33,054 nucleotides of DNA from contig SXZD01000252.1 of the NCBI GenBank assembly GCA_005788065.1, positions 1-33,054 of the forward strand, in the 5' to 3' direction. Shown here in pieces: positions 5,083 through 31,342 of this stretch (position 1 is its first letter; the number at the start of each line of letters is the position of its first letter). This stretch comes from Burkholderiales bacterium. Its GTDB lineage: Bacteria; Pseudomonadota; Gammaproteobacteria; Burkholderiales; Burkholderiaceae_B. The notes below the pieces were generated by a model. It was not told the origin of the DNA. It searched no databases and saw nothing but the letters and a program-made list of their open reading frames with translations. The position numbers and the translations under genes were made by a program.

Positions 5083-5145
5083 AGTAGGCCGAAGAACATC
5101 ACGCCTTGTTCTGCCCCACCACGCACTGCGCTACCCGGCTCAACG

Positions 5146-7671: not shown

Positions 7672-8261
7672 GAGCACACCCCGACCGACTCGATACGCGG
7701 TGCATCCAGGGTGCCCGGATCTTTCTGCAGGGTATCGGACGGGTTGTAAAGCCTCAGGGTAAACACAAGCCCACGGTCACCGGGCGTTCGCATATCCGGC
7801 GACTGGCCGTCTGCCGTTTGATCTGACGGTGAGCTTCGCGCTACAAACCGCCCCTGTGCATCTGTCTTGATACGTGCGCCGTTGATACTGAAATGCTGCT
7901 GCGCATCTGCAAACAGGAAATGATCATCCGCATATGCCGTGATGCTCCACCAACGGGCATCAGGCTTGACACCCTCGATACGGTACTCGCAGCGACTGCG
8001 CAAGTCACGACCTGATGAGTCCGTCCGCGCCACATAGTAGATCGTTTCTTCAGGACCCAGTGCCAGCAGGCCGCCCACTGCAACCCGCGCCCGCGTTACA
8101 TTGTCCGCCGCCACTGATCCGGCCAACAGATGGGCTCTCCACGGACCCGCACTGATTGCAACCGTGTCAGGACGCTTTACCGTCCATGCTGTCCATCCGA
8201 TACCACTGGCCATTGCCGCCAGACCCAAACCACCCCAGAACAGCACGGTTTTCAGATTCAT
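7668..8261 (-). CDS. membrane-anchored DUF1214 domain protein
   Basis: The start is taken at MNLKTVLFWGG (ATG 8261), which forms an ATGA overlap with the sulfatase stop (8258-8260). The listed ORF's Arg-rich 58-aa extension is implausible. The motif WWSITAYADDHFLF...FSINGARIKTDAQGRF is DUF1214-like. Confidence 0.65.
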   Translation of the reverse strand: MNLKTVLFWGGLGLAAMASGIGWTAWTVKRPDTVAISAGPWRAHLLAGSVAADNVTRARVAVGGLLALGPEETIYYVARTDSSGRDLRSRCEYRIEGVKPDARWWSITAYADDHFLFADAQQHFSINGARIKTDAQGRFVARSSPSDQTADGQSPDMRTPGDRGLVFTLRLYNPSDTLQKDPGTLDAPRIESVGVCS

Positions 8262-10129
8262 TTTCTTTTGATCCAATCGGGTCCGGGCAACTCGGCGCCC
8301 ATGTCTTCGCCCACTTCCTGTGCGATCAGCGCATTGAGTTTCGCATTCAGTGCCATGACGGTTTTGACGCTGTCGTTTGTCGTAGCGTCGTTTCCTGCAA
8401 TTCCGGTTTTCGCGTTGTCGGCAGTCAGCCCCCATGCCAGATTGTTCATCTCCAGCGGGTCATTCTGCGTATCGTAGAGTTCCAATTGATTGTTCTGCAG
8501 CAATTGCTCCAGCGTCACGGGAACATGATGACCGGTTGCCGGAAAGTAGCGCGCAAACTTGTAACGTCCATCATGCAGACCGCGGAACAAGGCAGGACGC
8601 GTGAGGCGGGGCAATGGGCGTATACCTTTGAGCAAATTGCGCGCTGGCATCCACTTGTCACTGACGATGCCCTTCCTCACCATCTGTTCGATAAAATCGC
8701 TGTCCAGATAATGCGTGGTGTCGTAGTTAAACAGAATGCCCCGCTTGTCGCGCTGAGTTAACTCATGCGGCTTGGCAACAGCCTGGGCCACGCTGACACC
8801 ATTGAGTTGCGGATAAGCCTGAGCAACGCGCGAAGGGTCTGCCCCGGCCCACTCCAGCAATGTCGGGATCAAATCCACTGCGCTGCCCAATGCGCGGGTC
8901 GTCTGACCGCCCTTCGCATCGGGGTGCACGACCATCATCGGCACACGCGTGTTTTCGTCATACATGAAGGGACCTTTTTGACGCAGTCCATGTGCACCGG
9001 CCATCTCGCCGTGATCGGATGTGAACACCACCACCGTGTTTCCCGCTTGGCCACTTTCTTTCAGGGCATTCAAAATGCTTATTACATTTTGATCAGCATC
9101 GCGTATGCAATTGTAATAATACGATTGATAGGCCTGCCAACTGCTTTGTTCATCGGGTACCCGCCCGTATGCCATGTCGCAGAATTCCCGGTAATTGTCA
9201 TGCGCCCACGGCTTGCTGGACAAATCGTCACTGCGGTTGGCGGGCAGATCAAAATCCCAATGCTTCCGGTAAAGCGCAACATCCGGCGCACCGGCCAATG
9301 GCGCCAGATAGTCCGGGTGCGCACGCGAGGCAATCTGCGCCGCACCGGTTGCGTAGTACATCACATCATGCGGGTTGACCAGGTTGACGCACAGGCACCA
9401 AGGCTGAGCCGTTGCGACAGAAGATGATTCTGAGGATGAGCCTCTCGCGCGCGCCCGTATCCACTCTGCCGACTGCGAAGCGATCTGCGCATCCACCCGA
9501 AAACCGGTCCATGTTGAGCCGTGCGGATCACCATCAAAATTGAAATCAGAGAAGCCCCAGGGTTCCAGCGCATGCTGCGAATTGGGATACTGCCCATAGG
9601 TCAGTTCATGCCGTGCATGCAGATGGCTCAAATGCCATTTGCCCTTGTAGGCTGTGTAATAGCCATTGGCGCGGAAATAATGACCGAGTGTGGCCATGTC
9701 GATCGGGGGCTCACGATCCGGGTAGGCACCTAAGTTTGAAATTATGCGCGTGCGCTGCGTATATTGCCCGAAATACAGATTGGACCGCGAAGGCGAACAC
9801 GGCGTGGTGTTCACATGCCAGCGCTCAAACACGGTGCCATGCGCAGCCAACCATTCATGCCCGGGCAGCGGCAAACCGCGGGGCAAGGCAGCGCGCTCCT
9901 GGTCGGTGACGATCAGCAGCACGTTGGGGGCACGCGATCCTTGCGGCAGCACGCGGGGCAGATTGCGCTGCACGCTTTTCAGGTTTTGAAGACCACCTGC
10001 ATCCACTGCAGCAGCAGATCCGGAGGAACCCTGCAGACGTCCCAGACCGTAGCTGGCGGCCAGTGCACCACTGAGCGCACCGGCCTGAAGCAGGCGTCTT
10101 CGCAGCGACGCTCGCTCGCTGTCGCTCAC
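8258..10129 (-). CDS. Cys-type (formylglycine-dependent) sulfatase with Tat signal peptide
   Basis: 623-aa ORF with a GTG start directly after the TAA of the small upstream ORF. It has the Tat motif SLRRRLLQAG, the metal site LLIVTDQ, the CxPxR FGly motif PCSPSRSNLYFG (Cys codon 9797-9799), and FTSDHGE. Confidence 0.85.
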   Translation of the reverse strand: MSDSERASLRRRLLQAGALSGALAASYGLGRLQGSSGSAAAVDAGGLQNLKSVQRNLPRVLPQGSRAPNVLLIVTDQERAALPRGLPLPGHEWLAAHGTVFERWHVNTTPCSPSRSNLYFGQYTQRTRIISNLGAYPDREPPIDMATLGHYFRANGYYTAYKGKWHLSHLHARHELTYGQYPNSQHALEPWGFSDFNFDGDPHGSTWTGFRVDAQIASQSAEWIRARARGSSSESSSVATAQPWCLCVNLVNPHDVMYYATGAAQIASRAHPDYLAPLAGAPDVALYRKHWDFDLPANRSDDLSSKPWAHDNYREFCDMAYGRVPDEQSSWQAYQSYYYNCIRDADQNVISILNALKESGQAGNTVVVFTSDHGEMAGAHGLRQKGPFMYDENTRVPMMVVHPDAKGGQTTRALGSAVDLIPTLLEWAGADPSRVAQAYPQLNGVSVAQAVAKPHELTQRDKRGILFNYDTTHYLDSDFIEQMVRKGIVSDKWMPARNLLKGIRPLPRLTRPALFRGLHDGRYKFARYFPATGHHVPVTLEQLLQNNQLELYDTQNDPLEMNNLAWGLTADNAKTGIAGNDATTNDSVKTVMALNAKLNALIAQEVGEDMGAELPGPDWIKRK

Positions 10130-10456: not shown

Positions 10457-11875
10457 TCACGCCGCAGCGCGACGAAGCTCAAACGACACGGAAGCAATGC
10501 AGCCCTGCCCCGCCAGACTCAGGATGTCGGCCTCACCACCGGTCGCGTCGGCCCAGCGCTTCAACGCCCGCAAACCGCCCAGCCCCGCGGCGTTAGGATC
10601 TTCAACGTCCTGCGGGTCCGTTTTGACGGCAGACCTGCCGTCAGTTCTCAGGCCAGGGGAAGTGCCGCCCTGCGGGGTTTGTGCGTCGACCCTTTCCCGA
10701 AAAAACGCGCGCATGCGCCGCATCACAGGCTCTGAAATACCCGCACCGGTATCCGAAACAACAAGACGCCATGCGAGGCTGTCTGAATGGGGCGCATTGC
10801 GGTTGGTGCACTCCAGCCGCACCAGAATGCTCCCCTGAATCGTGTATCGGACCGCATTATCGAGCACGGCATTGATGGCATCCAGATACAGTTGGGTAGG
10901 CCCTACGCAAGCCGGCGCGAACTCTGCATCAATATCCTGCACAAGCGAAAGCCCCTTGGCCTGTGCTGCCCGCGCCCAGTGGTCGCAGCGGATCTGCAGT
11001 ATCTGCACCGGCGCACACAACTCCAGGTCAAGCCCGCCAGCCGACAGCTTGCGCGCAGACCCCAGCGCCGTTTCTAGAAACTGCATCACGCGTGTCGACA
11101 TGCGGCTGATACTGCCCGCATCGGTTGCAGCAGGCCTGTCCTCTGCCTGCATTGACTCGATGGCCTGCACCATGCCATGCAAGGGAACTTCAATATCGGT
11201 CGACAGCGATTTCAAAAACCGCTCCTTGCTGCTCTGCGCATGCTCGATAACGGCAAGCGTTTGCTTCAGGGCCTCACGACGCTGCCGTAAGGCCTGCTCA
11301 AGCTGTGCCGACTGTCTGTCCATGAAAATGGAAAAGCCCAGCGCAAGCAGGTACATGATCGTCAGACAGAGCAGATTGACCTCGGTGTTGACGAAGCGAT
11401 CGCCCACCGGCCCGCTGATGAAACCACCCAGTTCCGCCAGTGCAGCCGCAGCGAGCAGGACACTTGCAAAGACCATCACGGCAAGTCCCGCACGCAGACC
11501 AAACACCGTCAAGGTCAATAGCAGTGCGAATGCGGTGAATGGAGAACTGGCCGACCGCGTTCCCAATTCAAGACCGAACAGGCTGAAGGCGATGATGCCG
11601 AGTACCAGCACAATGACGATCGCGGCGATGAAAGTATTTCGGCCGGATCGGATGAAAGGGATGCAAGCCAGCGAGATGAACGCAATCAGCCCGCCTTGCA
11701 GGACCTGCTTCTGTGCCAGCAGGTCGCCATTCAGAGCGGGGACCGCACGCAAAGCCACCAGCAGGAGACCCAGTAGCACACCACAGGCTGCAAACGACAT
11801 GAAGGCCGAGCGTGCTGAGGTGCACTCGATGTGCTCGATCAAGTCGGTGACCGGCATGCGTTCATCGACGCTCAT
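10457..11875 (-). CDS. histidine-kinase-like membrane protein with a degenerate H-box (pseudo-kinase?)
   Basis: 472 aa with a polytopic N-terminus. The position of the H-box reads FLKSLSTDIEVPLHG, with Thr (codon 11198-11200) where the paralogs have SHEIRTP/SHAIRTP. N-box LDNAVRYT and G1 DTGAGI are kept. The G2 region carries an insertion (…GLRTDGRSAVKTDPQDVEDPNAAGLGGL). The ATG overlaps the upstream kinase's TGA as TGATG. Confidence 0.75.
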   Translation of the reverse strand: MSVDERMPVTDLIEHIECTSARSAFMSFAACGVLLGLLLVALRAVPALNGDLLAQKQVLQGGLIAFISLACIPFIRSGRNTFIAAIVIVLVLGIIAFSLFGLELGTRSASSPFTAFALLLTLTVFGLRAGLAVMVFASVLLAAAALAELGGFISGPVGDRFVNTEVNLLCLTIMYLLALGFSIFMDRQSAQLEQALRQRREALKQTLAVIEHAQSSKERFLKSLSTDIEVPLHGMVQAIESMQAEDRPAATDAGSISRMSTRVMQFLETALGSARKLSAGGLDLELCAPVQILQIRCDHWARAAQAKGLSLVQDIDAEFAPACVGPTQLYLDAINAVLDNAVRYTIQGSILVRLECTNRNAPHSDSLAWRLVVSDTGAGISEPVMRRMRAFFRERVDAQTPQGGTSPGLRTDGRSAVKTDPQDVEDPNAAGLGGLRALKRWADATGGEADILSLAGQGCIASVSFELRRAAA

Positions 11876-13242
11876 CAGACGCCTCCTGACGGATTGGGCT
11901 GGCTCGCCCGTTGCAGCGGCAACACCAACCAGAAGCGGCTGCCCTGCCCGGGTTCACTGCTGACCTGCAGACTGCCACCCATCAGCCCGCTGAGTTCCTG
12001 CGCCAGCGCAAGGCCGATGCCGGTGCCCGCCGTCTGATTGGCTGCATCGGTGGCACTCTGGGTGAAAGGCTGAAAAATGCGGTTCAAAATGTCGGCATCA
12101 ATACCTGGACCGGTATCGCTGACCGTGAAAGTCCAAACCACGCTGGCCTCATCCATGTCCAGGGGAAGCGCCGACAATGAAACGCTGTCACCTGTACGGG
12201 CAAATTTCACCGCATTGGACAGCAAAATGCTCAGCACCTGATGCAGGCGCTTCTCATCCACCAGCACATGGGCAGAAACTGCCGCATCTGCATGCAAGAA
12301 CCAGTGCAACGCTTTTTCCGCGGCAGACGCTTTGAACTGTGCAAACAAGGACGCTAGAAAAACACCAAGATCGCATGATTTCAAGTCAGTCACCATCAGC
12401 CCTCTGCGCGAGGACTTGAAGTCCAGCAGCGAATTGACGAATGCATCGAGTTCGCGCGCTGAACGTCTCAGCGACCTGAGATACACCTCCCGCTTGCTGG
12501 CGGGCACGCGATCATCCTTGAGCAACTGCAGACCGCTCTGTATGCCCACCATCGGCGTACGGATGGCATGAGAGAGCGATGCAAAAAACGCCTCAGACTC
12601 TTGCTGGGCTTGTTCGCGCTGGGCAATTGCATGCTCCAGCGCCTGCGCCTCTGCGATCAACTCGGACTGAACGGCCTGGTTGCGCCTGAAAAAAGATCGG
12701 CTGACAACAAATACCACCATCAGCAGAAGAATGACCGCGGCCAGACTGGTCAAGATCGACCCTTGCCGATCGGGCGTCGGAGCAAAGACCGGGTAGGCTT
12801 TTTCAATTGCATATGTGGAACCCAGCAGCAAAAAACCCAAGCCGGTTGCAAACCATCCCGCCCTGTGACCAAAAAACAGGGTTGCCGTGCAAATGATCGT
12901 GATATAGAGAACAAAACCGCTGGATTTCAGTCCGTAACCAACTCCGAACACACCCACTGCGGTCACAGCAAGCAAGCCCAGAAAAATCAGAGTCATGGCC
13001 GCTTTCAGGTGCCCCCTGCGAGACAGGCCGATGATGGCAGCGCCGTTGATGACATTGCCAGCCAGTACCCAGGCGATGGTGCGGGCAGCCGCGCTTGGGT
13101 TGTTCATGACCAGAACGACTATCAATCCGAGCGACCCGAAGCAGACGAGTTGACCGCCAAATGTCAGTACGCGGGCAATATCGTCAATCTGTTTCCAGGT
13201 GCCGGCGCGGGAGCCGGTTTCATTCATGCCGTACAGGGGCAT
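11875..13242 (-). CDS. membrane sensor histidine kinase (polytopic sensor + HisKA + HATPase_c)
   Basis: 455 aa. Motifs: H-box FFASLSHAIRTPMVGI, N-box LLSNAVKFA, G1 DTGPGI, F-box FQPFTQ, G2 GTGIGLALAQEL. Confidence 0.85.
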   Translation of the reverse strand: MPLYGMNETGSRAGTWKQIDDIARVLTFGGQLVCFGSLGLIVVLVMNNPSAAARTIAWVLAGNVINGAAIIGLSRRGHLKAAMTLIFLGLLAVTAVGVFGVGYGLKSSGFVLYITIICTATLFFGHRAGWFATGLGFLLLGSTYAIEKAYPVFAPTPDRQGSILTSLAAVILLLMVVFVVSRSFFRRNQAVQSELIAEAQALEHAIAQREQAQQESEAFFASLSHAIRTPMVGIQSGLQLLKDDRVPASKREVYLRSLRRSARELDAFVNSLLDFKSSRRGLMVTDLKSCDLGVFLASLFAQFKASAAEKALHWFLHADAAVSAHVLVDEKRLHQVLSILLSNAVKFARTGDSVSLSALPLDMDEASVVWTFTVSDTGPGIDADILNRIFQPFTQSATDAANQTAGTGIGLALAQELSGLMGGSLQVSSEPGQGSRFWLVLPLQRASQPNPSGGV

Positions 13243-21158: not shown

Positions 21159-22085
21159 TTAACCCTTGTGAGAATATGCGACGCTGGTATGCACCCACTC
21201 CAGTATGCCCTTGGTAACCGCATCGGGGGCCTCGCACTGCGGATAATGACCGATACCCGGTAACTCCACGCAGTCGACAGGCCCGAGCAACTCGCGATAG
21301 CGCGCCACCATGTGCGCACCGGAGACCGGATCATCCAGACCATTGATCAGGCGGATCGGAACGGGACTGTCGCGCAGCGCGCCCAGCCAGTCCTCACGCC
21401 GACGACGGCGGTCCGCTATATAGCGGATCAACCGGTGAAAATTCCGATGTCCGTTCTTGTGCGATACCAGTTGCCAGAAGTATGCGAGTTCCTCGGCAGA
21501 TGGCTGCGTGTTGGCAGCGAATACGGCGGCAAATGACCGGTAAAAAGCGGTCTCGTTGCCCAGCCTCGCGATCAGCCAACCCATCGGTGAATGCAATAGC
21601 TTCTGGATGAAACGGGCGCGGTGCGTTTCCGGAAACAGACCGCCGTTGAGAAAGAGCATGCCCTGTGATAGCCATGGGCGTGCCGGTCCATCCGTTCTCT
21701 GACGATGCAAAATTTCTTGCCCGATGCTCACACCATAATCATGTACGACCGTGATGGCGCGTTTGACGCCCATGCGTGAAAGTACCGCATCGACAAGATC
21801 CGTCTGCTGCTCGATGCTGTAATCGAAATCAGCCGGTTTGTCAGAAAAACCGAAACCCAGCAGATCCATGGCCACAACGCGGTGGCGTTCGCCAAGTGCG
21901 GGCCAGATCGCCTGAAAATCCCATGTCGACGTCGGAAATCCGTGGATGAGCACGATGGTTGGAACATCGCCACCGGGCGGCACGCCTGCGGGCAGAGTGT
22001 CGCGGCAGAACACCTGGAACCCCCTCCAGTCCATATAAAACCCGGACAGCTTCCAATCGGCTGGCCTCATCAATACGTGCGCCAC
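21159..22085 (-). CDS. alpha/beta-fold hydrolase (epoxide hydrolase / haloalkane dehalogenase-like, Asp nucleophile HDYG)
   Basis: 308 aa. It has the oxyanion motif VLIHGFPTSTWDF and the nucleophile elbow VVHDYGVSIG. A C-terminal His is present in GIGHYPQCE. The GTG start has RBS GGGAG about 8 nt upstream. Confidence 0.85.
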   Translation of the reverse strand: MAHVLMRPADWKLSGFYMDWRGFQVFCRDTLPAGVPPGGDVPTIVLIHGFPTSTWDFQAIWPALGERHRVVAMDLLGFGFSDKPADFDYSIEQQTDLVDAVLSRMGVKRAITVVHDYGVSIGQEILHRQRTDGPARPWLSQGMLFLNGGLFPETHRARFIQKLLHSPMGWLIARLGNETAFYRSFAAVFAANTQPSAEELAYFWQLVSHKNGHRNFHRLIRYIADRRRRREDWLGALRDSPVPIRLINGLDDPVSGAHMVARYRELLGPVDCVELPGIGHYPQCEAPDAVTKGILEWVHTSVAYSHKG

Positions 22086-22172
22086 ATCCAGTCTCCCTCT
22101 TTGACATCGCGATTTGCAGTTTAACCCCAGACGCTTGAAGTGATGATGGTATGCACGCGCGACTTGAAAAAC

Positions 22173-23363
22173 TCAGAGCAAACGCCGCAATCCCACCAAA
22201 CCCAGAAGCGGTCCGGGCAACAGAAACCAGGCGACATGCACACCCATGTCGCCAACCCATTTCATGCCCAACTGTATCGATACGACTGTGATCGCAAATC
22301 CGACGGCATTCTGAAATGCCAATGCACTGCCCACCATCTGCGGCGGGCAGGCCTTGGCTGACAGCGCCGAGTAATGCGGCGAGTCAGCAATCGCCGATAC
22401 GCTCCAGACCAGCAGCAGCAACCACTTGCACCAGAGCGGCCACCCCACCGCAAACGGAAACAGCGCACAACACACGACGGAACCGGCAAGCGCCAACGCT
22501 GCGACGCGCGCACTGCCGATGCGTCGGCTGAGCACGCCACCCAGCACGCAACCAGCCGCGCCCACACCGATGATGACAAACGCCGACATCGACTGTGCGG
22601 CACTAGCGGGCTGCGCCATCTGCATGAGACTGAGCAAGGCCGGTATCAGCGCCCAGAACGCATACAGTTCCCATTGATGTCCGAAATAGCCCAATGCCGA
22701 TGCCCGAAAAGCGGGTATGGAAAACGTGCGGAACACATCGCCCCATTTGACGCCGTGCTGCACGCGCTTCAGATGGGGACCATCGCCCAACGCATGAATC
22801 ATGCATGCGGCCAACGCAGCGAGTGCGGATGCCAGCAGCAATGGCCACTGCCACGGCAAGCCACCGCCCAGCGCCCTGAAACCATGTGGCAGCGAGATGC
22901 CCAGGGTCAGCATGCCCACCAGCCATGCCAACGCGGCACCGGCCTTGTCTGGCATCCAACTGACCACCAGTTTCATGCCCAATGGATAAATACCGGCAAG
23001 ACAAAGACCCACCAGGAACCGGATGAGCATGCCACCGGCCAGTCCCTGCGCAAAGAACACGAATGATGCATTCAGGGCTGCACCCGTGATGGCACATACC
23101 GAGAAAATGCGACTGGCCGGGAACCGGTCTGCCAGACCGGTAATGGAAAAAATCAAGGTGCCCGTGATGAAGCCGATCTGCACCGCGTTGGTCAAGGTAC
23201 CGATGTCAGCCAGTGTCATGCCCCAGGCCAGCATGAGATCGTCAGCCGCACTGTTGGCAGAAAACCAGAGCGATGTGCCAAACAGTTGTGCCACCACGAT
23301 GGGAACAAGCGGACTGTCGGCGATACGGGCGCGGGTCAGACTGGGTTGACCCCGGCCGCTCAT
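22173..23363 (-). CDS. MFS transporter
   Basis: 396 aa, with 12 hydrophobic segments by eye. The ATG forms an ATGA overlap with the yaeQ stop. Confidence 0.8.
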   Translation of the reverse strand: MSGRGQPSLTRARIADSPLVPIVVAQLFGTSLWFSANSAADDLMLAWGMTLADIGTLTNAVQIGFITGTLIFSITGLADRFPASRIFSVCAITGAALNASFVFFAQGLAGGMLIRFLVGLCLAGIYPLGMKLVVSWMPDKAGAALAWLVGMLTLGISLPHGFRALGGGLPWQWPLLLASALAALAACMIHALGDGPHLKRVQHGVKWGDVFRTFSIPAFRASALGYFGHQWELYAFWALIPALLSLMQMAQPASAAQSMSAFVIIGVGAAGCVLGGVLSRRIGSARVAALALAGSVVCCALFPFAVGWPLWCKWLLLLVWSVSAIADSPHYSALSAKACPPQMVGSALAFQNAVGFAITVVSIQLGMKWVGDMGVHVAWFLLPGPLLGLVGLRRLL

Positions 23364-23890
23364 GGCGCGTCCAACGCTTCAACGCGCACGCTGTCCTCCC
23401 CGATGTAGACCAGGCCCTCCTGTATGGTCCACGACAGTTGCATGTTGCGTTGCGCCAGTTTGACCAATTTCGCACAATCCTCGGGGCTGACCTGAAGCAT
23501 CGAAAAATTGTTCAGGCGAGCCAATGCAGACCTGTTCTGCTCGCGCCACAGGTCAACAGCACGACCGCCATAAGCCAGCAGCACAACGCGCCCGGACCGG
23601 CCACAGGCCTTGCGCAACCGCGACTCGTCCGGCAAGCCGAGCTCGATCCACAGCCGTATGACGCCTGCGGGGTCTATCTCCCACAGGGCCGGCTCATCAT
23701 CGGTGGAGATGCCTTTGCCGAATCGCAGATCTTCACTGGCATGCAATGCAAATGCGAGCAGGCGCAGCATGACCCGCTCGGAGGTTTCAGACGGGTGCTG
23801 CGCCACCGTCAACGAATAGTCCGCAAAATGCGAACGATCCAGATCTGAAACGGTCAGAGCCACCTTCCACACCGTCGATTTCAATGCCAT
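23360..23890 (-). CDS. yaeQ: YaeQ family protein (PD-(D/E)XK-like fold family)
   Basis: The start is set at [22 protein letters not shown] (ATG 23890, RBS GGGAGG upstream). This is near-identical in pattern to the E. coli YaeQ N-terminus MALKATIYKA..ADLDRN; [16 protein letters not shown] is also conserved. Confidence 0.85.
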
Positions 23891-23991
23891 GCGTGAGCAC
23901 CTCCCAAACAAGCCGGGATTGTAAAGCACTGAACCCTACCTCGCTGCCTGCGCTCGCGCGGCACTCCTGCAGAACGGAAGCAAGCCTAAAA

Positions 23992-24011
23992 TACTGTATG
24001 AAAAAACAGTA
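23992..24011. promoter_or_regulatory. LexA (SOS) box TACTGTATGAAAAAACAGTA
   Basis: A perfect match to TACTGT-N8-ACAGTA (core CTGT-N8-ACAG) in the yaeQ / vapB divergent spacer. It lies 102 nt from the yaeQ ATG and 143 nt from the vapB ATG. A TAAAAT hexamer abuts it on the plus strand (23987-23992). Confidence 0.6.
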
Positions 24012-24101
24012 CACTGCGCTTGTCATTTTTGAACAAACAACCCCTGCGAAGCAAATTGCCACGACGATGAGCGACCCGAGCACACATTCACACCTTGCAT
24101 T

Positions 24102-24141
24102 TGCATCAAAAATGATGCATTGTGGCATCAATCATGATGTC
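24102..24141 (+). promoter_or_regulatory. candidate VapB operator: inverted repeat TGCATCA-AAAA-TGATGCA plus a second imperfect copy GCATCA-ATCA-TGATGT
   Basis: Perfect 7-bp arms at 24102-24119 and an imperfect repeat at 24125-24140, both directly upstream of the vapB ATG (24154). This is the typical position for TA autoregulation. Confidence 0.4.
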
Positions 24142-24153
24142 AGCGAGAACAAC

Positions 24154-24357
24154 ATGCGCACCACAGTCAGCATCGACGACGAATTGTATGAACGGGCCCT
24201 GGAGTTGGCAGACCCCGCCATGGAGAAAGCGGACCTGTTTCGTGAAGCCATCAAAACCTTCATCCGCATGCAGGCAGCCAAGCGACTTGCGGCAATGGGA
24301 GGCGCACAACCCGACATGCCCGCCATCCCCAGACGGCGGCCCGGCAAGTCATCATGA
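24154..24357 (+). CDS. vapB: VapB-type ribbon-helix-helix antitoxin
   Basis: 67 aa from [18 protein letters not shown] to the C-terminal ...[10 protein letters not shown]. The TGA overlaps the vapC ATG as ATGA. The listed ORF 23884..24357 is an in-frame upstream extension with no family support. Confidence 0.75.
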
Positions 24358-24731
24358 AAAATGTTCTGGTAGACGCTTCTGTCTGGGTGTCCCATTTCAG
24401 ACGCCCAGACCCTGAATTGGTACAACTGCTGCTTCTGGACAGGGTTCTGGTTCATCCGCTTGTGATCGGCGAAATTGCGTGCGGCACGCCTCCTGACCGA
24501 CATCAAACACTTCAAAACCTGCGCTCGCTTCGCAAGGCACACCAGGCCAGCCTGGACGAGACGCTCGGCTTCATGGAGCAGCGCAGACTGTACGGGCGCG
24601 GATGCGGATTGACCGATATTGCCCTGCTCGCTTCGGTGAAACTCAGCCCTGCTGCGCGGCTCTGGACTGCTGACAAACGACTGTCTGCTCTTGCAAGTGA
24701 GCTCGATGTCAACCACCTGCCGGTTCACTGA
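24354..24731 (+). CDS. vapC: VapC PIN-domain ribonuclease toxin
   Basis: 125 aa. The PIN acidic residues are in their usual positions: VLVDASVW (D7), VIGEIACG (E), GLTDIALL (D), LWTADKRL (D). Confidence 0.85.
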
Positions 24732-24824
24732 AACAGACACTTTAAAATGTTTTTTTACCGCATATTTATGTGATAGCGTTCGGTTACAAAAATTGTTAAT
24801 CCGACCATAACGACTGACAGATCC

Positions 24825-26600
24825 ATGACGCAACTCGTCCGCCTGTTCTATACCAGCAAGGCAGAACGGCGCACCCCAGACGCGACACAGCAGATACTCA
24901 CGCAAAGTGTGGGTAACAACACCCTGCGCGGTATCACCGGCGTACTGCTGCAGGTGGACAGACGCTACCTGCAGGTGCTCGAAGGCCCCAAAGACGCTGT
25001 CATGGCGCTTTTCACCAAATTGCAGGCGGATCCGCGCCACCGCGCAATCAAAATCCACTTCGAACAGACTATCACCGAGCGCATGTTCGACAGTTGGGCA
25101 ATGGCTTCGCCCGCCGTGGGCAACCTGCAGATCAAATCCACACTCGAATTGTTGACCAGTCAGAACCCCGCTTCCCAAGAGATCGGATTAACGTATCTGA
25201 AGTACTGGCTGACCACACAGGCCGCCGACAAACGACTGCTTCCGGATGGTGACGCTGCTGAACTGGGCGCCCCCATTCTGGTGGATGACTTCATGGCGGC
25301 GCAGCGCCGCTCACGCGACTTCTCCATCATTGCGTTCTGCGCGGCCATCCTGATTGCCGTGCTGATGGACATCTCTTTCTACATCTCGGATTATCTGGGG
25401 GGGAACGCCGAGAGTCTGCGCATGGTGCACTCCCACTCGTTATCTGCATTCGGGCTTATCCTCTCGATCTACGTCGCCAACCGGCAAGACCTCAGCAAAG
25501 GCGTTGCCATATTCCAGATCACCGCTTTCATCAGTGTGGCCTTGCACATGCTGTATGCCGGCTATGGCATCTACGCCCCCAGCCTGCCTTATCTGGGCCT
25601 CGCTATTGTGTCGGGCATCATCAGCAACCGACACGATCAACACTTCAAACTGCTGTTTGCCTGTCTCGGGCTCATCGTCATGGCAGCCTTGTTGTCGGCC
25701 GTTTCGGTAGATACCGGACAGTTCTCCAAACCCGTACCACTGCATCACGCCACTGTAGCGGGCTTGCTGTTTCCGCTGGTCTGTGCGCTTATACTTGATG
25801 CGCAGCGCCATCGCACGTCGGTTACGCAGCTCTTCGGCGCGCACCTGTTGAGCGACCTGAGCAAGACCATCGACCGACTGCGGTCTGCCATGACCGCACG
25901 CAATTATTTTTTCTCGGCCATTTCGCACGAAATCCGAACACCCATGGCCGGTGCGGCTGCATCGGTATCGCTGCTCAAACATCCCAATGCCAGCGAGACT
26001 ATCAAAGAGCGAAGCCTCAAATCGCTGGACCAGTCACTGACCAACTTGAACCGTCTGCTCAACGATCTGCTGGATATCAGCAAACTGGAGTCTGGTTCCT
26101 TTCAACTGGCCAATTCCGCATTTGACCCGATAGAGCTTACCCGAGAAACTGTCGAGTTCTTCCAGCCCAACATACTTGAAAAGGGCAACACGCTCGACCT
26201 GCAGTTACCGACAGACGCACTGACGGTGATAGGTGACAGCATGCGCCTGCAACAGATGATCGCCAACCTGGTCAGCAACGCGGTGAAGTTCACGGACAAG
26301 GGGCACATCACCGTGCGGCTCAAGCGCATGGATACGGGTGGACTCGCGCTCTCAGGCTATACCACCTTGCGTTGCGAAGTCAGTGACACGGGCATCGGCA
26401 TACCGGCGGAAGACCTGCCATACCTTTTCCAGCCGTTTTCCCAAGCCAGCCAGCATGGTTATTCAAAGATCAAGGGGACCGGGCTTGGCCTGGCCATCGT
26501 AGCCAGTCTTGCCAAGCAGATGGAAGGTGAAACTGGCGTGGACAGTGTGGAGGGCCAGGGTTCTACGTTCTGGTTCACCATCCGCCTGCCAATCAAGTAG
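24825..26600 (+). CDS. BLUF domain - polytopic membrane module - HisKA - HATPase_c histidine kinase
   Basis: 591 aa.
- aa 4-96 are BLUF: RLFYTS (Y9), [19 protein letters not shown] (Q50), DPRH, FDSWAM (W91, M93).
- About 6 hydrophobic helices span roughly aa 165-330.
- Kinase motifs: H-box [16 protein letters not shown]-box [10 protein letters not shown]1 DTGIGI, F-box FQPFSQ, G2 GTGLGLAIV. Confidence 0.8.
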
Positions 26601-27189
26601 CCAACAAGGCCGTGCCCGCCAAACCCACCGCCACCACAATGGCGGTGTAGAGCAAACCGATACCGATGCCGGCTGCCACAAACAGGCCATCGCGCGCCAT
26701 GCGTCCCAGACAGATGGCGATGATGGAACCGGACGGTCCGATGTTGCCACCCGGCATGGGCAGGAAAATGAAAAACGCCATCAACAGGATGAGCGGTGCC
26801 TGCAGCAGCAACATGATCGGATGACTGGACGCGAGAAACGTCAGGCGCACCCGCGTGGCACCGGCAGCCACCTCATACAGGCGCGTCAACCACTCCATGA
26901 GTTTGTCAGCCACCTTGAAGGGAATGGTCCGTCGGGCCACAAAGTCCGGCAGACCCACTCCGGGGCGGTTGATGACCATCAGCAACGTCAGTGGCACCAA
27001 GGCAATCGAGAACACCATACCCGAAAACGGTACCGGCAAAATGGTCAAGCCGCAGACAAAAATCATTAGCGCAAGGTTTGAGCTGTCTCCGAGACTAGCC
27101 GCCAACAGGCCAAGTTGAACCGGGTTGCCGGGATTGGACTGTATCTGCTGGTGAACTGCTTTGACGTTTTGCAAAAGGGCATGAAGCAT
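26593..27189 (-). CDS. exoD: ExoD family (exopolysaccharide synthesis) membrane protein
   Basis: 198 aa with the ExoD-like layout: ...[40 protein letters not shown]...[10 protein letters not shown], followed by C-terminal TM helices. Its 3' end overlaps the convergent kinase gene by 8 nt. Confidence 0.65.
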
Positions 27190-27214
27190 GGGGTCTGCCT
27201 GAATTGGGGATTAG

Positions 27215-27258
27215 CTGAAACAGGGTTTGCCTGAAACAGGATTGTCCTCTGAGACAGG
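27215..27258. repeat. three direct copies of CTGA(A/G)ACAGG in the exoD / phnD-like divergent spacer
   Basis: Copies lie at 27215-27224, 27231-27240 and 27249-27258, with starts spaced 16 and 18 nt apart. On the exoD strand they read CCTGT(T/C)TCAG, and the nearest copy is about 25 nt from the exoD ATG. Confidence 0.35.
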
Positions 27259-27406
27259 TCATCCATTATCCACCATCCCGGCCAGTGCGTTTAAGACTCC
27301 GTATTAACCATGAGGGGTGATCCATCCCATGAAATAAGCCGGCAAATCACGTAGTATTGACCATTGAGGTTTTTCACACACATTAGCTGACGGAGCAGAA
27401 ATCACC

Positions 27407-28339
27407 ATGATCGTTGAAACACGCCATGCGCATGCATCACATCTGAACGCGACAAGCCAAGCGCCCCGCACCCTGCGCGGGCTGATGGGTAGCGCACTGG
27501 CAGCACTTGCAACCGTCGCAGCCCTTGCAACGGGCAGCATTGCGCACGCGCAAACGTCCCTGAAAATCACCTCCATCCCGGAAGAAGCAGCAACCGAGCA
27601 GATCCGCAAGATCAAGCCCTTGGCCGACTATCTGACCGCTGAGTTGGGCATGCCTGTCGAATTCACGCCGGTCAACGACTATCCCGCTGCTGTCGAGAGC
27701 CTGGTCAACAAAAAAGTGGACGTGGTGTGGTTCGGTGGATTTACCTACGTGCAAGCCAAACTGCGTTCAGGAAACAAGGTCATTCCGATCATCCAGCGCG
27801 AGGAAGATACACAGTTCCAGTCCGTGTTCATAGCCAAGACCAATTCCGGCATCAAGGACCTGAAAGATCTGAAGGGCAAGAACGTGTCGTTCGGCTCACA
27901 ATCCAGCACGTCAGGTCACCTCATGCCACGCAGCTTTCTGATGGATGCGGGTCTGAACCCTGAAAAAGATTTCAAACGTGTGGCTTATTCCAAAGCGCAT
28001 GATGCCACCATCGCATCAGTGGTGAGCGGACAGGTGGATGCAGCCGCGCTCGACATCACCGTGTGGAAGAAATTCGTCACCGAAGGCAAAGTGGATACGA
28101 ACGACACCAACGTCTTCCATACGACACCCGGTTATTTCAACTACAACTGGTCAGTGCATCAGGACATGAGCCCTGCCCTGCGCGAAAAAATTGCCCAGGC
28201 TTTTCTCAAGATGGACCCCAAAAATCCGGCACACGCTGAACTGCTGAAGCTGAACAGGGCCACACGCTACATCCGCACCGATGCCAAAAACTATGCGGGT
28301 ATCGAAGCAGCAGGCCGCTCGGCCGGTCTGATCGACTGA
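27407..28339 (+). CDS. phnD: PhnD-family periplasmic substrate-binding protein (phosphonate/phosphite-type ABC importer)
   Basis: 310 aa with a signal peptide ending AHAQ. PhnD-like blocks are present: LKITSIPEE...LADYL...PVEFTPVNDYPAAVESL...VDVVWFGGFTYV, SFGSQSSTSGHLMPR. The actual substrate cannot be read from the sequence. Confidence 0.75.
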   Translation: MIVETRHAHASHLNATSQAPRTLRGLMGSALAALATVAALATGSIAHAQTSLKITSIPEEAATEQIRKIKPLADYLTAELGMPVEFTPVNDYPAAVESLVNKKVDVVWFGGFTYVQAKLRSGNKVIPIIQREEDTQFQSVFIAKTNSGIKDLKDLKGKNVSFGSQSSTSGHLMPRSFLMDAGLNPEKDFKRVAYSKAHDATIASVVSGQVDAAALDITVWKKFVTEGKVDTNDTNVFHTTPGYFNYNWSVHQDMSPALREKIAQAFLKMDPKNPAHAELLKLNRATRYIRTDAKNYAGIEAAGRSAGLID

Positions 28340-28348
28340 GGATCTGCG

Positions 28349-29185
28349 ATGGAGATCAGTGCCCGCAATCTGTGTGGCAAGCACCCGGCGGCACCGTCGG
28401 GTGCGCCACATGCAATCGACCATCTGTCAGTGCAGATTGCATCGGGCGAACATGTGGCTCTCATCGGCCCCTCAGGTTCGGGCAAGACAACGCTGATCCA
28501 ATTGCTAGCAGCCGGGCTCAAGCCTTCATTGGGCGAGGTGCTGCACAACGGTCAAAACCCCTGGCAACTGGACAAATCCGACCTGCAGCAGTTTCGCAAA
28601 CATCTGATCGTCGCACCGCAGGTGCCGCCGCTGCCACCACGGCAGCGCGTGGTCACTGCCATATTGGCTGGACGACTGCCGCAGCAGAGCATCGGGCAGA
28701 GCCTGCGCTCGCTTTTTTATCCCAGCGACATACCCGGTGCGCATGCCGCACTCGACCAGTTCGGTCTGGCAGACAAACTGTTTGAACGGGTAGACCGCTT
28801 GTCTGGCGGCGAACGGCAGCGTGTTGCGCTGGCACGCTTGCTGATGAGCAACGCCAAGTTGTGGCTGATTGACGAACCGCTGTCGGCACTCGACCCCAAC
28901 AGCGCCCTGCAGGCCATCGACACATTGACGCGTATCGCCAAAGAACGTGGCGTCACGCTGGTGGTCACACTGCATCAGGTGGAGACAGCCCTGCAGTTTT
29001 TCCCGCGGGTATTGGCGCTCAGAAAAGGACAACTCGAGTTTGATCTGCCCGCAGCGGAGGTCAGCCGACAACGCCTGCAACAACTCTACGGAGATCAGGC
29101 CTATGAGCTGGAGCAACCGGCGGTGCTGCCTGTCGGCTTTGAGGCAACCGGCGTTGCCACGTCACAGGTGATGACCTGCAGATGA
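28349..29185 (+). CDS. phnC: PhnC-like ABC transporter ATP-binding protein
   Basis: Walker A GPSGSGKTT, signature LSGGERQRVALARLL, Walker B LWLIDEP. RBS GAGGA lies 6 nt upstream. The stop overlaps the next ATG as ATGA. Confidence 0.85.
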   Translation: MEISARNLCGKHPAAPSGAPHAIDHLSVQIASGEHVALIGPSGSGKTTLIQLLAAGLKPSLGEVLHNGQNPWQLDKSDLQQFRKHLIVAPQVPPLPPRQRVVTAILAGRLPQQSIGQSLRSLFYPSDIPGAHAALDQFGLADKLFERVDRLSGGERQRVALARLLMSNAKLWLIDEPLSALDPNSALQAIDTLTRIAKERGVTLVVTLHQVETALQFFPRVLALRKGQLEFDLPAAEVSRQRLQQLYGDQAYELEQPAVLPVGFEATGVATSQVMTCR

Positions 29186-30033
29186 GTCAGGCCGCATCCG
29201 TTCTCCTGCATCCACATGCTGCACGCGACCCGAGTTTTGTCAGTCGCGTGTTGCTCAGTCTGGTGGCGATTGCCCTTTGCGTGCCGCTTTTCCCGCTGAC
29301 CGAATTCAATCCGGCTCGGTTGCTCACTCCCGAGGCCCTGAAGTCCATGGGCAAGTTTCTCGCGGAGTTTGTTCCGCCGGCGGTGGGGGGCGAGTTCCTG
29401 TTGATGGTTGCGCGAGAAACGTGGCGCACGGTTGCGATCGCAACAGCGGGGCTGACGCTGGCGCTGTTCGGTGCCATTCCGATGGCCCTGATGGCTACCC
29501 GTCCCTTGAGTCTTTCTGCGCTCAACAATGCCGGCAAAATGGCGTGGATACCGACCGGTATCCGTCAGGGTGTGCGCACCCTGATGGTGGTGCTGCGAAC
29601 CATCCCCGAACTGGTCTGGGCGTTGGCTTTTGTTCGTGTGGTTGGGTTGGGACCGACCGCCGGCGTGCTGGCCATCGCGCTGACCTATGCGGGCATGCTG
29701 GGCAAGGTCTACGCCGAAATACTTGAGAGCAGCGACCGACATGCCAGCGACACCCTGATGCGAAATGGTGCCAGCCGCTTGCAGGCATTTTTGTATGGGC
29801 TGCTGCCGCAGAATGCATCCGAGCTGACGAGTTACACGGTCTACCGCTGGGAATGTGCCATCCGCAGTTCGGTGGTGATGGGATTTGTGGGCGCAGGTGG
29901 ACTGGGGCAGGAACTGGACAATTCCATGCGCCTGTTCAATGGTGGTGAAGTGGCCACGATGTTGCTGGTGTTCATCTTGCTGGTGGCTGCGGCCGATCAG
30001 GTCAGCCGTGTGCTGCGCCGCATGTTGGGATGA
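29182..30033 (+). CDS. phnE: PhnE-like ABC transporter permease (1 of 2)
   Basis: 283 aa, polytopic. The PhnE-type EAA region reads RTIPELVWALAFVRVVGLGPTAGVLAIALTYAGMLGKVYAEILE. Confidence 0.8.
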   Translation: MSQAASVLLHPHAARDPSFVSRVLLSLVAIALCVPLFPLTEFNPARLLTPEALKSMGKFLAEFVPPAVGGEFLLMVARETWRTVAIATAGLTLALFGAIPMALMATRPLSLSALNNAGKMAWIPTGIRQGVRTLMVVLRTIPELVWALAFVRVVGLGPTAGVLAIALTYAGMLGKVYAEILESSDRHASDTLMRNGASRLQAFLYGLLPQNASELTSYTVYRWECAIRSSVVMGFVGAGGLGQELDNSMRLFNGGEVATMLLVFILLVAAADQVSRVLRRMLG

Positions 30034-30043
30034 AGGGGCATAC

Positions 30044-30856
30044 ATGAACACCCACCACGCTGCAAATGAAACCTTCAAACTGGCGCCGCAACTGTTTCAT
30101 GCGCGCTGCGTGGTCTGCTGGGTGCTAACCGGCATCGTGGTCTTGATTGTGGCGAGCTTTGCCACACTCGGACTGGCCTTCCAAGAATTTTTTTCATGGG
30201 AATCGGCCCAGAGCATGGGCCGCTTTCTGGCAGAGTTTGCCAATCCGAACCTCAAGCCACTCTTTCTGAAACAGGTAGCCATCGCCAGTCTCGAGACACT
30301 GGCCATGTCGGCACTGGGCACGCTGCTGGCCGTTGTGGCCGGTTTGATGCTGGCCTTGCCAGCGGCGCGCTTGAAAGGTGCAAGTGGCAGCATCATGCAG
30401 ACCCTGCTCAATGTGCTGCGCTCCATTCCTGAAATGGTGTGGGCGGCCTTGCTGCTGATTGCTGCAGGTCTTGGCCCGTTTGCGGGCACGCTTGCGCTGG
30501 CCATTCACACCACCGGCGTGCTGGGTAGACTGTACGCAGAAACCATCGAAAACGCAGACCCGGGGCCCGCACAGGCATTGGTGCTGCAAGGTACGAGCCG
30601 CGGTCAGGTGTTCTGGTATGCCACGCTACCGCAGATACTGCCGCAGGTGATTGCGTATGCCCTGTATCGCTGGGAAAACAATATCCGCGCTGCCGCCATT
30701 CTGGGTGTGGTCGGCGCAGGGGGACTGGGGCAGATGCTGACCTTTCATCTGGGCCTGTTCCAGATGAGCAAAACCGCGACAGTCCTGTTTGCCATGATCC
30801 TGCTGGTGCTGGCGGTCGATTGGCTCAGTCTGGCCATGCGGCGGCGGATGATGTGA
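30044..30856 (+). CDS. phnE: PhnE-like ABC transporter permease (2 of 2)
   Basis: The start is set at MNTHHAANE (ATG 30044, RBS AAGGGG upstream), because the listed ORF's first 53 aa overlap the preceding gene. It is paralogous to the previous permease (RSIPEMVWAALLLIAAGLGPFAGTLALAIHTTGVLGRLYAETIE). Confidence 0.8.
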   Translation: MNTHHAANETFKLAPQLFHARCVVCWVLTGIVVLIVASFATLGLAFQEFFSWESAQSMGRFLAEFANPNLKPLFLKQVAIASLETLAMSALGTLLAVVAGLMLALPAARLKGASGSIMQTLLNVLRSIPEMVWAALLLIAAGLGPFAGTLALAIHTTGVLGRLYAETIENADPGPAQALVLQGTSRGQVFWYATLPQILPQVIAYALYRWENNIRAAAILGVVGAGGLGQMLTFHLGLFQMSKTATVLFAMILLVLAVDWLSLAMRRRMM

Positions 30857-30877
30857 TGCATGCAAGGTGGACTCATC

Positions 30878-31342
30878 GTGCAGATCTGGGTTGACGCGGA
30901 CGCCTGCCCGGGCGTCATCAAAGACATACTGTTCCGTGCGGCAGACCGTGCGAAAGTGTCAGTCACGCTGGTGGCCAACCAGATGCTCAGAACACCCCCC
31001 TCCCCTTATATCCGGGCCTTGGTGGTGCCATCCGGCTTTGATGTGGCCGACCAGCGCATCGCGCAAGAGACCAACAGTGGCGATCTGGTCATCACGGCCG
31101 ATATTCCACTCGCCTCGCTCGTTATTGCAAAGGGTGCAACGGTCATCGACCCACGGGGCGAAGTGCTGACGATTGCAAACATTGAAGAGCGTCTGACCAT
31201 GCGCAATTTCATGGACGAATTGCGTGGCAGTGGCGTGCAAACCGGGGGCCCCGCGGCATTCTCCGCATCCGACCGGAAAGCATTCGCAGGACGGTTGGAT
31301 GCGTGGCTGATGAAGCGACAGAAAATGTTGCAGGGGCGATAA
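30878..31342 (+). CDS. yaiI: YaiI/YqxD (UPF0178, DUF188) family protein
   Basis: It aligns along its whole length to E. coli YaiI from memory ([54 protein letters not shown]). I prefer GTG 30878, which has RBS AGGTGGA 7 nt upstream and gives the family-typical N-terminus, over the listed ATG 30860. Confidence 0.85.

Follow-up and report, generated by a model that had tools for sequence, protein, structure and literature searches.

A candidate blue-light-modulated membrane histidine kinase with an N-terminal short-BLUF unit in a Burkholderiales contig

We analysed a 33,054-nucleotide stretch of DNA from a Burkholderiales bacterium (contig SXZD01000252.1), called the window below, and focused on one gene that encodes a BLUF domain, six transmembrane (TM) helices and a histidine kinase core. 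It is referred to here as the BLUF kinase. The gene was an uninterrupted open reading frame (ORF) with an ATG start, and its product had 591 amino acids (Table 1). A preliminary description of the sequence had reported the BLUF hallmarks, about six hydrophobic helices and a complete HisKA/HATPase_c core with the H-box SHEIRTP. All of these were recovered by hydropathy, AlphaFold2 (AF2) and Pfam. The motifs RLFYTS, NN..GITGVLL, YLQVLEG, DPRH and FDSWAM were all present. Pfam BLUF (PF04940) matched residues 4-94 over profile positions 1-92 of 92 (E=1.1e-24, 86.8 bits, gathering cutoff 25). HisKA (PF00512) matched residues 358-424 (E=8e-14), and HATPase_c (PF02518) matched residues 470-589 (E=1.9e-29). 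The three matches did not overlap, and all were far above the curated thresholds.

Residues 1-160 were compared with all PDB chains using phmmer, and 22 solved BLUF chains were matched. These included BlrB (2byc, E=4e-12), bPAC (5m27), Tll0078, PixD, BlrP1, OaPAC and AppA. In the sequence alignments, Y9, Q50 and W91/M93 fell on the photocycle Tyr, Gln and Trp/Met of the solved proteins, which agreed with the earlier assignment of Y9 and Q50 as the catalytic pair. The reference tyrosine is Y21 in AppA and Y8 in PixD, and the reference glutamine is Q63 and Q50, respectively. N31/N32 aligned with the flavin-contacting Asn pair of BlrB and bPAC.

The kinase boxes were also intact, with H368, E369, T372, N485, D521xGxG and G551xGxG in place and the N485, DTGIGI, FQPF and GTGLGL motifs present. 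The H-box, S-H368-E-I-R-T372-P, includes the E/DxxT/N phosphatase motif and was invariant in the family described below. In a Foldseek search, the kinase core model had a canonical fold and matched the cores of HK853, WalK, DivL and GacS (E~1e-14, target TM-scores ~0.8). Pfam detected no receiver (REC) domain in the BLUF kinase, and the protein ended at the catalytic ATP-binding (CA) domain. Assignment to a hybrid kinase of the TorS/BarA/LuxQ/ArcB type was considered and rejected, since the NCBIfam matches covered the core only and were far under the equivalog cutoffs (TorS, 200 versus 676 bits).

Table 1. Features of the BLUF kinase gene and of other genes in the window. Identity is the mean pairwise identity across the five full-length family members.
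Feature	Residues	Coordinates	Strand	Identity	Basis
BLUF-6TM-histidine kinase, complete gene with stop codon		24825..26600	+		ORF listing, Pfam
BLUF core; Y9, S28, N31/N32, Q50, R71/H72, W91, M93	1-95	24825..25109	+	42%	Pfam PF04940, alignments
BLUF C-terminal helical cap, alpha3 (100-110) and alpha4 (115-131)	96-131	25110..25217	+	41%	Alignments, AF2
Variable tether, length 31-34 aa, ending in positively charged juxtamembrane RRSR	132-165	25218..25319	+	13%	Conservation, pLDDT
Six-helix membrane module	166-326	25320..25802	+	39%	Hydropathy, AF2
Helical connector, TM6 to DHp helix; exactly 31 residues in 5/5	327-357	25803..25895	+	29%	AF2, constant length
DHp/HisKA, H-box SHEIRTP	358-424	25896..26096	+	65%	Pfam PF00512
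Codon of phospho-acceptor H368	368	25926-25928	+		
CA domain; N, G1, F and G2 boxes intact	425-591	26097..26597	+	49%	Pfam PF02518, Foldseek
Membrane kinase		461..1888	-		
Nutrient-scavenging cluster		3709..10129			
Membrane kinase, downstream gene of tandem pair		10457..11875	-		
Membrane kinase, upstream gene of tandem pair		11875..13242	-		
RelE/MqsA-like pair		~20.4-21.1 kb	-		
vapB/vapC (PIN) toxin-antitoxin pair		24112..24731	+		
exoD-family membrane-protein gene		26593..27189	-		
Phosphonate-type ABC transporter		27407..30856			

The membrane topology was then deduced from the sequence. Hydropathy gave six hydrophobic helices between the BLUF domain and the kinase. Lysine plus arginine amounted to 8-12 in the four predicted cytoplasmic segments versus 0-2 in the three periplasmic loops, and this was the case in 4/4 aligned members. 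Because the distribution follows the positive-inside rule, an N-in/C-in topology is predicted, with BLUF and kinase both in the cytoplasm and so in the same compartment. This was consistent with the cytoplasmic BLUF placement proposed before.

Two AF2 models were built. The first, from four sequences, had a predicted local distance difference test score (pLDDT) of 59.7 and was too poor to use. The second reached a pLDDT of 73.8 with a predicted template-modelling score (pTM) of 0.41, at which inter-domain contacts were not readable. AF2 helices were placed at residues 153-191, 196-220, 223-244, 255-266, 271-293 and 306-385, and the pLDDT of the TM region was 80-91. The last of them ran from TM6 into DHp as one unbroken helix in both models. 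The BLUF elements fitted the fold (beta 4-13, alpha 18-34, beta 38-44, beta 47-55, alpha 56-68 and beta 72-83) at a pLDDT of only 61-85, and the beta5 region, residues 89-100, was below 50. Both cap helices were predicted. Tether residues 130-151 had a pLDDT below 50 in both models. For the TM module, neither Pfam nor NCBIfam gave a match to a curated family, and permissive scans gave sub-threshold noise (MFS, Yip1, DUF1304).

The extent of the BLUF unit was defined by its stand-alone relatives. Stand-alone BLUF proteins of 140-165 aa aligned from query residue ~4 to residues 118-135, and the alignments included the cap helices. The cap carried the family motif GL(T/S)(Y/F)LKYxLTT. Because the stand-alone proteins align through the cap helices, residues 1-135 are read as a complete short-BLUF protein, core plus cap.

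The fusion was recovered in several samples. The identical 591-aa protein with identical neighbours was found in two independent assemblies, ENA ERZ27257036 (a 53-kb contig) and SRA run SRR8894380. Full-length homologues were P0002 (604 aa, 55% identity) and P0003 (590 aa, 48%), both from SRR24432705, P0004 (593 aa, 45%) from a JGI sample, and P0128 (595 aa, ~38%), which occurred in two samples and in a 5'-truncated form, P0123, in a third. Because the identical gene was present in two assemblies and four homologues diverged to 38-55% shared its architecture, the BLUF-kinase fusion is judged from these comparisons to be genuine and no assembly artefact. We define the BLUF-6TM-HK family here as P0001-P0004 and P0128, plus fragments. 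Its signature was present in collinear order, namely the BLUF domain, the cap motif GLxxLKYxLT, six TM helices, the AGYGxxAPxLPxLG loop, HH before TM6, the 31-aa connector and a HisKA core with LLKHP(K/N)A.

Conservation across the family was highest in DHp (Table 1). Y9, S28, N31, N32, Q50, R71, H72 and W91 of the BLUF domain were invariant in the five members. The BLUF core had diverged to 36-55% identity while the photocycle residues stayed fixed. Invariant kinase residues were H368, E369, T372, N485, DxGxG and GxGxG. Because the photocycle residues and the kinase catalytic residues were both invariant despite this divergence, the pattern argues for purifying selection on both predicted activities, photosensor and kinase. 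The membrane module had invariant polar residues as well (D182, H241, H307 and H308), and the AGYGxxAPxLPxLG motif lay in the short periplasmic TM3-TM4 loop.

The family was extremely rare, with ~9 sequences among ~15 billion proteins. Among the best 120 matches to the full protein in a 5.8-billion-cluster protein database, no BLUF domain was found beyond the family, and the other matches covered the kinase core only. An exhaustive HMMER scan of residues 95-345 against 1.84 billion representatives returned eight proteins. These were the family itself, the fragments P0122, P0124 and P0127, one spurious repetitive protein, P0123 and P0126. With residues 1-345 as the query, a word-indexed protein database gave only P0001, P0002 and one BLUF+B12-like protein. 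The latter, P0121 (JGI metagenome, 379 aa), was the sole non-family match to this N-terminal query and had a BLUF domain followed by a B12-binding/SCHIC-like domain, as in AppA. In a pattern scan of 185,579 species-representative genomes the family was absent; all 375 confirmed relatives matched via BLUF, and the 80 loci kept from them matched within query residues 1-135 only. No kinase fusion was found among the 83 closest BLUF ORFs in the kept reference-genome loci, all of which were short and stand-alone. A linker/TM pattern scan of JGI metagenome contigs gave no relatives. The 8-sequence alignment was too divergent for deriving search patterns.

A relative without BLUF was identified in P0126 (446 aa). 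It aligned from TM1 (residue 167) to the C-terminus of the BLUF kinase with 37% identity (E=9e-78), and its cluster mates were P0130 and P0131, the group ranging from 422 to 446 aa. The TM module alone was matched with E=8e-15 in a five-sequence test set and E=1.5e-5 when the 1.84 billion proteins were scanned. The intergenic DNA upstream of P0126 measured only 106 bp, in-frame stop codons preceded the gene, and a BLUF domain was absent from its whole locus. The locus (L089 8920-18899) was partly syntenic with positions 21159..31342 of the window, sharing a divergent alpha/beta-hydrolase gene (57% amino acid identity) and a downstream DUF188 gene (86%). These two identities indicate that P0126 comes from a related organism and that synteny is partial. 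The kinases themselves, at 37% identity, were far more diverged than these syntenic neighbours. P0123 had also been considered as a minus-BLUF example and was rejected, as its ORF ran off the end of the contig and P0128, with which it clusters at 90% identity, was full-length with BLUF.

These results suggested how the fusion may have arisen. The most economical history would be that a short-BLUF gene became fused to a 6TM-kinase gene that already existed, at its 5' end. By homology, the P0126 family offers a natural minus-BLUF control, in another organism. The preliminary description had also proposed accretion of BLUF and natural minus-BLUF controls, taking three other membrane kinases in the window as evidence. 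That route failed, and the proposal survives through P0126, P0130 and P0131.

The three in-window kinases each had ~6 N-terminal TM helices fused directly to the core. They lacked BLUF, as had been described, and shared the same gross layout of six TM helices and a kinase. However, the homology was confined to the generic kinase core. Full-length BLASTP of the BLUF kinase against them aligned only residues 345-588, with 37, 34 and 22% identity. In the TM region, BLASTP without composition correction gave E=0.01-1, which was at noise level, and hhalign gave a probability of 1.8%. BLASTP of their TM regions against the bridging relative P0126 gave E=0.1-0.7. Their cores were 37, 35 and 23% identical to that of the BLUF kinase, versus 39-44% for unrelated database hybrid kinases. 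The claimed paralogy of the TM and kinase core was thus rejected by BLASTP, hhalign, the P0126 bridge and the core identities. In an unbootstrapped neighbour-joining tree, only the kinase at 461..1888 was placed as a weak sister of the BLUF-6TM-HK family. A long tblastn alignment of this kinase with the P0126 locus was carried by the kinase core and was likewise discarded.

A receiver domain was searched for in all six frames of the window, the extended contig and the DNA next to P0128. None was found, and the positive control was detected. Because no receiver domain lay in the window or the available flanks, the BLUF kinase is an orphan.

Based on the above results, we propose that the protein is most likely a blue-light-modulated, membrane-integral orphan sensor kinase. 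We consider it probable, with some reserve, that it is a homodimer-type kinase in which the short-BLUF unit, residues 1-135, is joined by a flexible tether of ~20-30 residues to a pre-existing 6TM-kinase chassis at its cytoplasmic N-terminus, and that light modulates the kinase via docking. This tethered-regulator model is favoured because conservation of the cap equals that of the core, the tether is predicted to be disordered, and the predicted topology does not put the membrane between BLUF and kinase. Blue light would excite a non-covalently bound flavin. Proton-coupled electron transfer along Tyr9-flavin-Gln50 would be followed by a hydrogen-bond switch and a red-shifted signalling state. 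The beta5 strand with Trp91/Met93 and the alpha3/alpha4 cap would then move. BLUF signals exit via beta5 and the C-terminal helices in BlrP1, the photoactivated adenylyl cyclases (PACs), AppA and PixD, and short BLUF proteins act through light-dependent protein-protein contacts. The next step is most likely light-dependent docking or undocking of the BLUF/cap unit on cytoplasmic elements of the same dimer. Candidate docking sites are the TM-loop face, the rigid TM6-to-DHp connector, or DHp/CA. Docking is favoured because the tether is unconserved and predicted to be disordered. The kinase/phosphatase balance at His368 would shift as a result, in one direction or the other. The cognate response regulator would be encoded elsewhere in the genome.

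The membrane module probably supplies a second, membrane-derived input, which would make the protein a dual-input kinase. The rigid, length-invariant TM6-DHp helix, the conserved polar residues and the existence of the module without BLUF suggest that it is itself a sensor. In its widest form, the proposal is that this is the first natural membrane-integral flavin photoreceptor kinase, in which a short-BLUF unit captured by gene fusion regulates a TM kinase by tethered, light-switched intramolecular contact and is integrated with a second signal sensed by a 6TM module of a type not classified before. This wider claim is tentative, and we hold it as possible rather than probable.

Several points weigh against this interpretation. 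Flavin binding and light-dependent activity are predictions from sequence. The inter-domain arrangement in the AF2 model is unreliable (pTM 0.41), so that BLUF docking is only proposed. The tether keeps its length despite the drift of its sequence, and such a constant length could reflect a structural role instead of a loose leash. Met93 was kept in 4/5 members and was Leu in P0002. The family is tiny and known from metagenomes only. No conserved partner or regulon was found, and the neighbourhoods differed between family members, with vapBC/exoD here, glmS beside P0004 and flagellar genes beside P0128.

The constant tether length is the main point in favour of mechanical coupling in the same protein. 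Here, BLUF dimerisation or changes in alpha4 would pass via the linker into TM1 and the bundle, and the TM bundle would act on the rigid helix from TM6 to DHp through piston, rotary or scissor movements. The signal would then pass through the membrane module, comparable to coiled-coil coupling in the PACs, instead of by docking. A length of 31-34 aa maintained at 13% identity fits this mechanism, as does the TM1 helix, which began in AF2 at residue 153, ~10 residues before the membrane. The TM module was also well conserved (39%) and rigidly linked to DHp, and bPAC and OaPAC transmit BLUF signals along helical handles. However, residues 130-151, with their low pLDDT in both models and essentially no conservation, would be a poor basis for rigid transmission, and BLUF-less P0126 shows that the TM module works without N-terminal input. 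Mechanical coupling is the main alternative, but we regard it as rather unlikely. That the chassis exists without BLUF in P0126 could mean that the BLUF domain is no light sensor here. It might then be a flavin/redox or temperature sensor, a dimerisation or scaffold module, or a relic, and the six TM helices would be the sole true input. BlsA, BluF/YcgF and AppA integrate temperature or redox signals, the Leu of P0002 at the Met93 position would fit, and the apparent host was an uncultured betaproteobacterium-like organism that may or may not be exposed to light. Yet Tyr9, Gln50, Asn31/32, Ser28 and Trp91 were invariant, and Met93 was kept in all members except P0002, at 36-55% domain identity. 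The Pfam match covered the full model length, and a relic would be expected to lose its photocycle residues. Because these residues were invariant, a non-photoactive BLUF appears unlikely, and we give this explanation little weight.

The same comparisons bear on a trivial explanation, in which a chimeric assembly, a frameshift or a mis-called gene merged a short BLUF with a downstream membrane kinase. All members came from metagenome assemblies, and the database entries P0122, P0123, P0124 and P0127 were truncated fragments. Against this, the 591-aa ORF and its neighbours were identical in independent assemblies, and the four diverged full-length homologues from other samples had the same uninterrupted architecture. 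Two samples contained P0128 itself, and a third contained P0123, the truncated form. An artefact is therefore very improbable. Tethered docking of a short-BLUF unit remains our preferred reading and is compared with known systems below.

In BlrP1 (BLUF-EAL) and bPAC/OaPAC (BLUF-adenylyl cyclases), too, the BLUF domain is N-terminal and has these photocycle residues, and the C-terminal helices after it carry the signal to a dimeric enzyme. The EAL or cyclase output of these proteins is soluble and is attached either directly or by a coiled coil, whereas here a disordered tether and a six-helix membrane module precede the output, which is a histidine kinase. The proposed docking resembles the contact of the BlrP1 BLUF with the EAL dimer. 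The closest BLUF relatives are the stand-alone proteins BlrB, PixD/Slr1694, Tll0078, BlsA and PapB, which were 33-46% identical and aligned over their whole length to residues 1-135, including the cap. The light-dependent partner contact proposed here is the mode of action of such short BLUF proteins. They are free, soluble and act in trans, whereas here the unit and its presumed target are parts of one membrane-bound polypeptide.

The polytopic TM sensor modules of DesK, AgrC and RegB/PrrB have no periplasmic domain, and RegB/PrrB has six TM helices and a conserved quinone site in a periplasmic loop. The BLUF kinase resembles this type in its six TM helices, short loops, a last TM helix that runs into DHp, a periplasmic-loop motif and intramembrane polar residues. 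It differs in its N-terminal photoreceptor and in a TM module without detected homology to any curated family. P0126, P0130 and P0131 have a TM module and kinase core homologous over their whole length to the BLUF kinase and lack residues 1-166, that is BLUF, cap and tether. In LOV kinases (LovK, EL346 and Brucella LOV-HK), bacteriophytochromes and histidine-kinase rhodopsins, a light sensor controls a HisKA/HATPase_c core, as proposed here. The rhodopsin kinases have their chromophore inside the membrane domain. LOV and phytochrome kinases are soluble with a helical linker between sensor and DHp (PMC6798134). In the protein described here, by contrast, a cytoplasmic flavin sensor is separated from DHp by a non-photoactive membrane module.

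The literature was consistent with a gap at this point. Möglich (2019) noted that BLUF units occur in sensor kinases, which were uncharacterised (PMC6798134). According to the same review, most photoreceptor classes are soluble, and no full-length structure of a transmembrane sensor histidine kinase had been obtained (PMC6798134). The general view is that non-retinal photoreceptors are soluble proteins (PMC6798134; PMC12558739). A 2025 review of light-activated enzymes listed only PACs and BlrP1 as BLUF enzymes and named LOV proteins as the flavin-based kinases (PMC12177928), and kinases and membrane proteins were both absent from a review of BLUF signalling (PMC5899715). The searchable full-text literature yielded no work on BLUF histidine kinases or on BLUF proteins that span the membrane, although an earlier listing in a survey of BLUF diversity is possible. 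The statement that no BLUF histidine kinase had been characterised was upheld accordingly. The claim of an undescribed architecture was too strong. Co-occurrence of BLUF and kinase is known from databases and has already been noted (PMC6798134), but the BLUF-tether-6TM-kinase arrangement, the family and the membrane module appear to be undescribed and uncharacterised.

The mechanism of BLUF signalling is known only from stand-alone proteins and from soluble enzymes of the EAL and cyclase types, and the studied flavin-based light-regulated histidine kinases are LOV proteins. The BLUF kinase would be an exception to the solubility of non-retinal photoreceptors. Full-length structural and mechanistic work on transmembrane sensor kinases has been held back, partly by stimuli that are not known or are difficult to deliver. 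A natural TM kinase with a built-in light trigger, together with the BLUF-less P0126 control, would make TM-kinase signalling experimentally approachable and, if the model is true, provide a light-triggerable model for it. The BLUF kinase could also seed blue-light two-component optogenetic tools orthogonal to LOV-based systems. If true, the fusion would further be a 'Rosetta stone' from which signalling via histidine kinases could be predicted for some orphan stand-alone BLUF proteins. These prospects are tempered by the small, metagenome-only family, and by the fact that shuffling of sensor domains onto kinases is common in principle.

The gene neighbourhood was surveyed as well. The vapB/vapC (PIN) pair was the immediate upstream neighbour of the BLUF kinase and had the same orientation, and a RelE/MqsA-like pair lay ~4 kb beyond it. 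A HicB-like gene was found just outside the window on the parent contig. Further upstream of the BLUF kinase were yaeQ, an MFS transporter gene and a hydrolase gene, and the best identities of YaeQ were 61-63% to the named Rhodocyclales betaproteobacteria Fluviibacter and Azonexus. On the other side, the exoD-family gene was convergent, tail to tail, with an 8-nt overlap with the 3' end of the BLUF kinase, and the phosphonate-type ABC transporter and DUF188 genes followed. A promoter/terminator scan around the BLUF kinase gene gave counts not above chance. The nutrient-scavenging cluster comprised genes for a PhoX-like phosphatase, an alkyl sulfatase fused to DUF1254, DUF1214 and an arylsulfatase.

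With the BLUF kinase, four membrane histidine kinases were present in the window and no receiver domain was found in six frames, so that all four were orphans. Two of the others formed a tandem with a 1-nt overlap. In the product of the downstream gene, 10457..11875, the phospho-acceptor His is replaced by Thr (SLSTDIEVPL) and the G2 box is degenerate (GTSPGL), and Pfam gave no HisKA match. The pair has the appearance of a canonical kinase together with a pseudo-kinase that lacks the His.

Among the stand-alone BLUF loci, a kinase gene lay within 1 kb in 5 of 79, a weak enrichment with a Poisson P of ~0.008-0.1 depending on the assumed background. In Leifsonia sp. ALI-44-B (L080 7970-10366), a histidine-kinase ORF ended 4 nt before a same-strand stand-alone BLUF ORF, and the pair is an apparent unfused HK-BLUF operon. 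In the family itself, P0128 (L087 189-5351; also L088 and L085) lay 134 bp upstream of an flhD-like gene and a 193-aa ORF, followed by convergent flgL and flgK. The match of the flhD-like gene was weak (NCBIfam 25 bits versus a cutoff of 90). The arrangement recurred in three samples, two of which reached flgL/flgK. This single-lineage hint suggests that the BLUF kinase could be linked to motility in the P0128 lineage.

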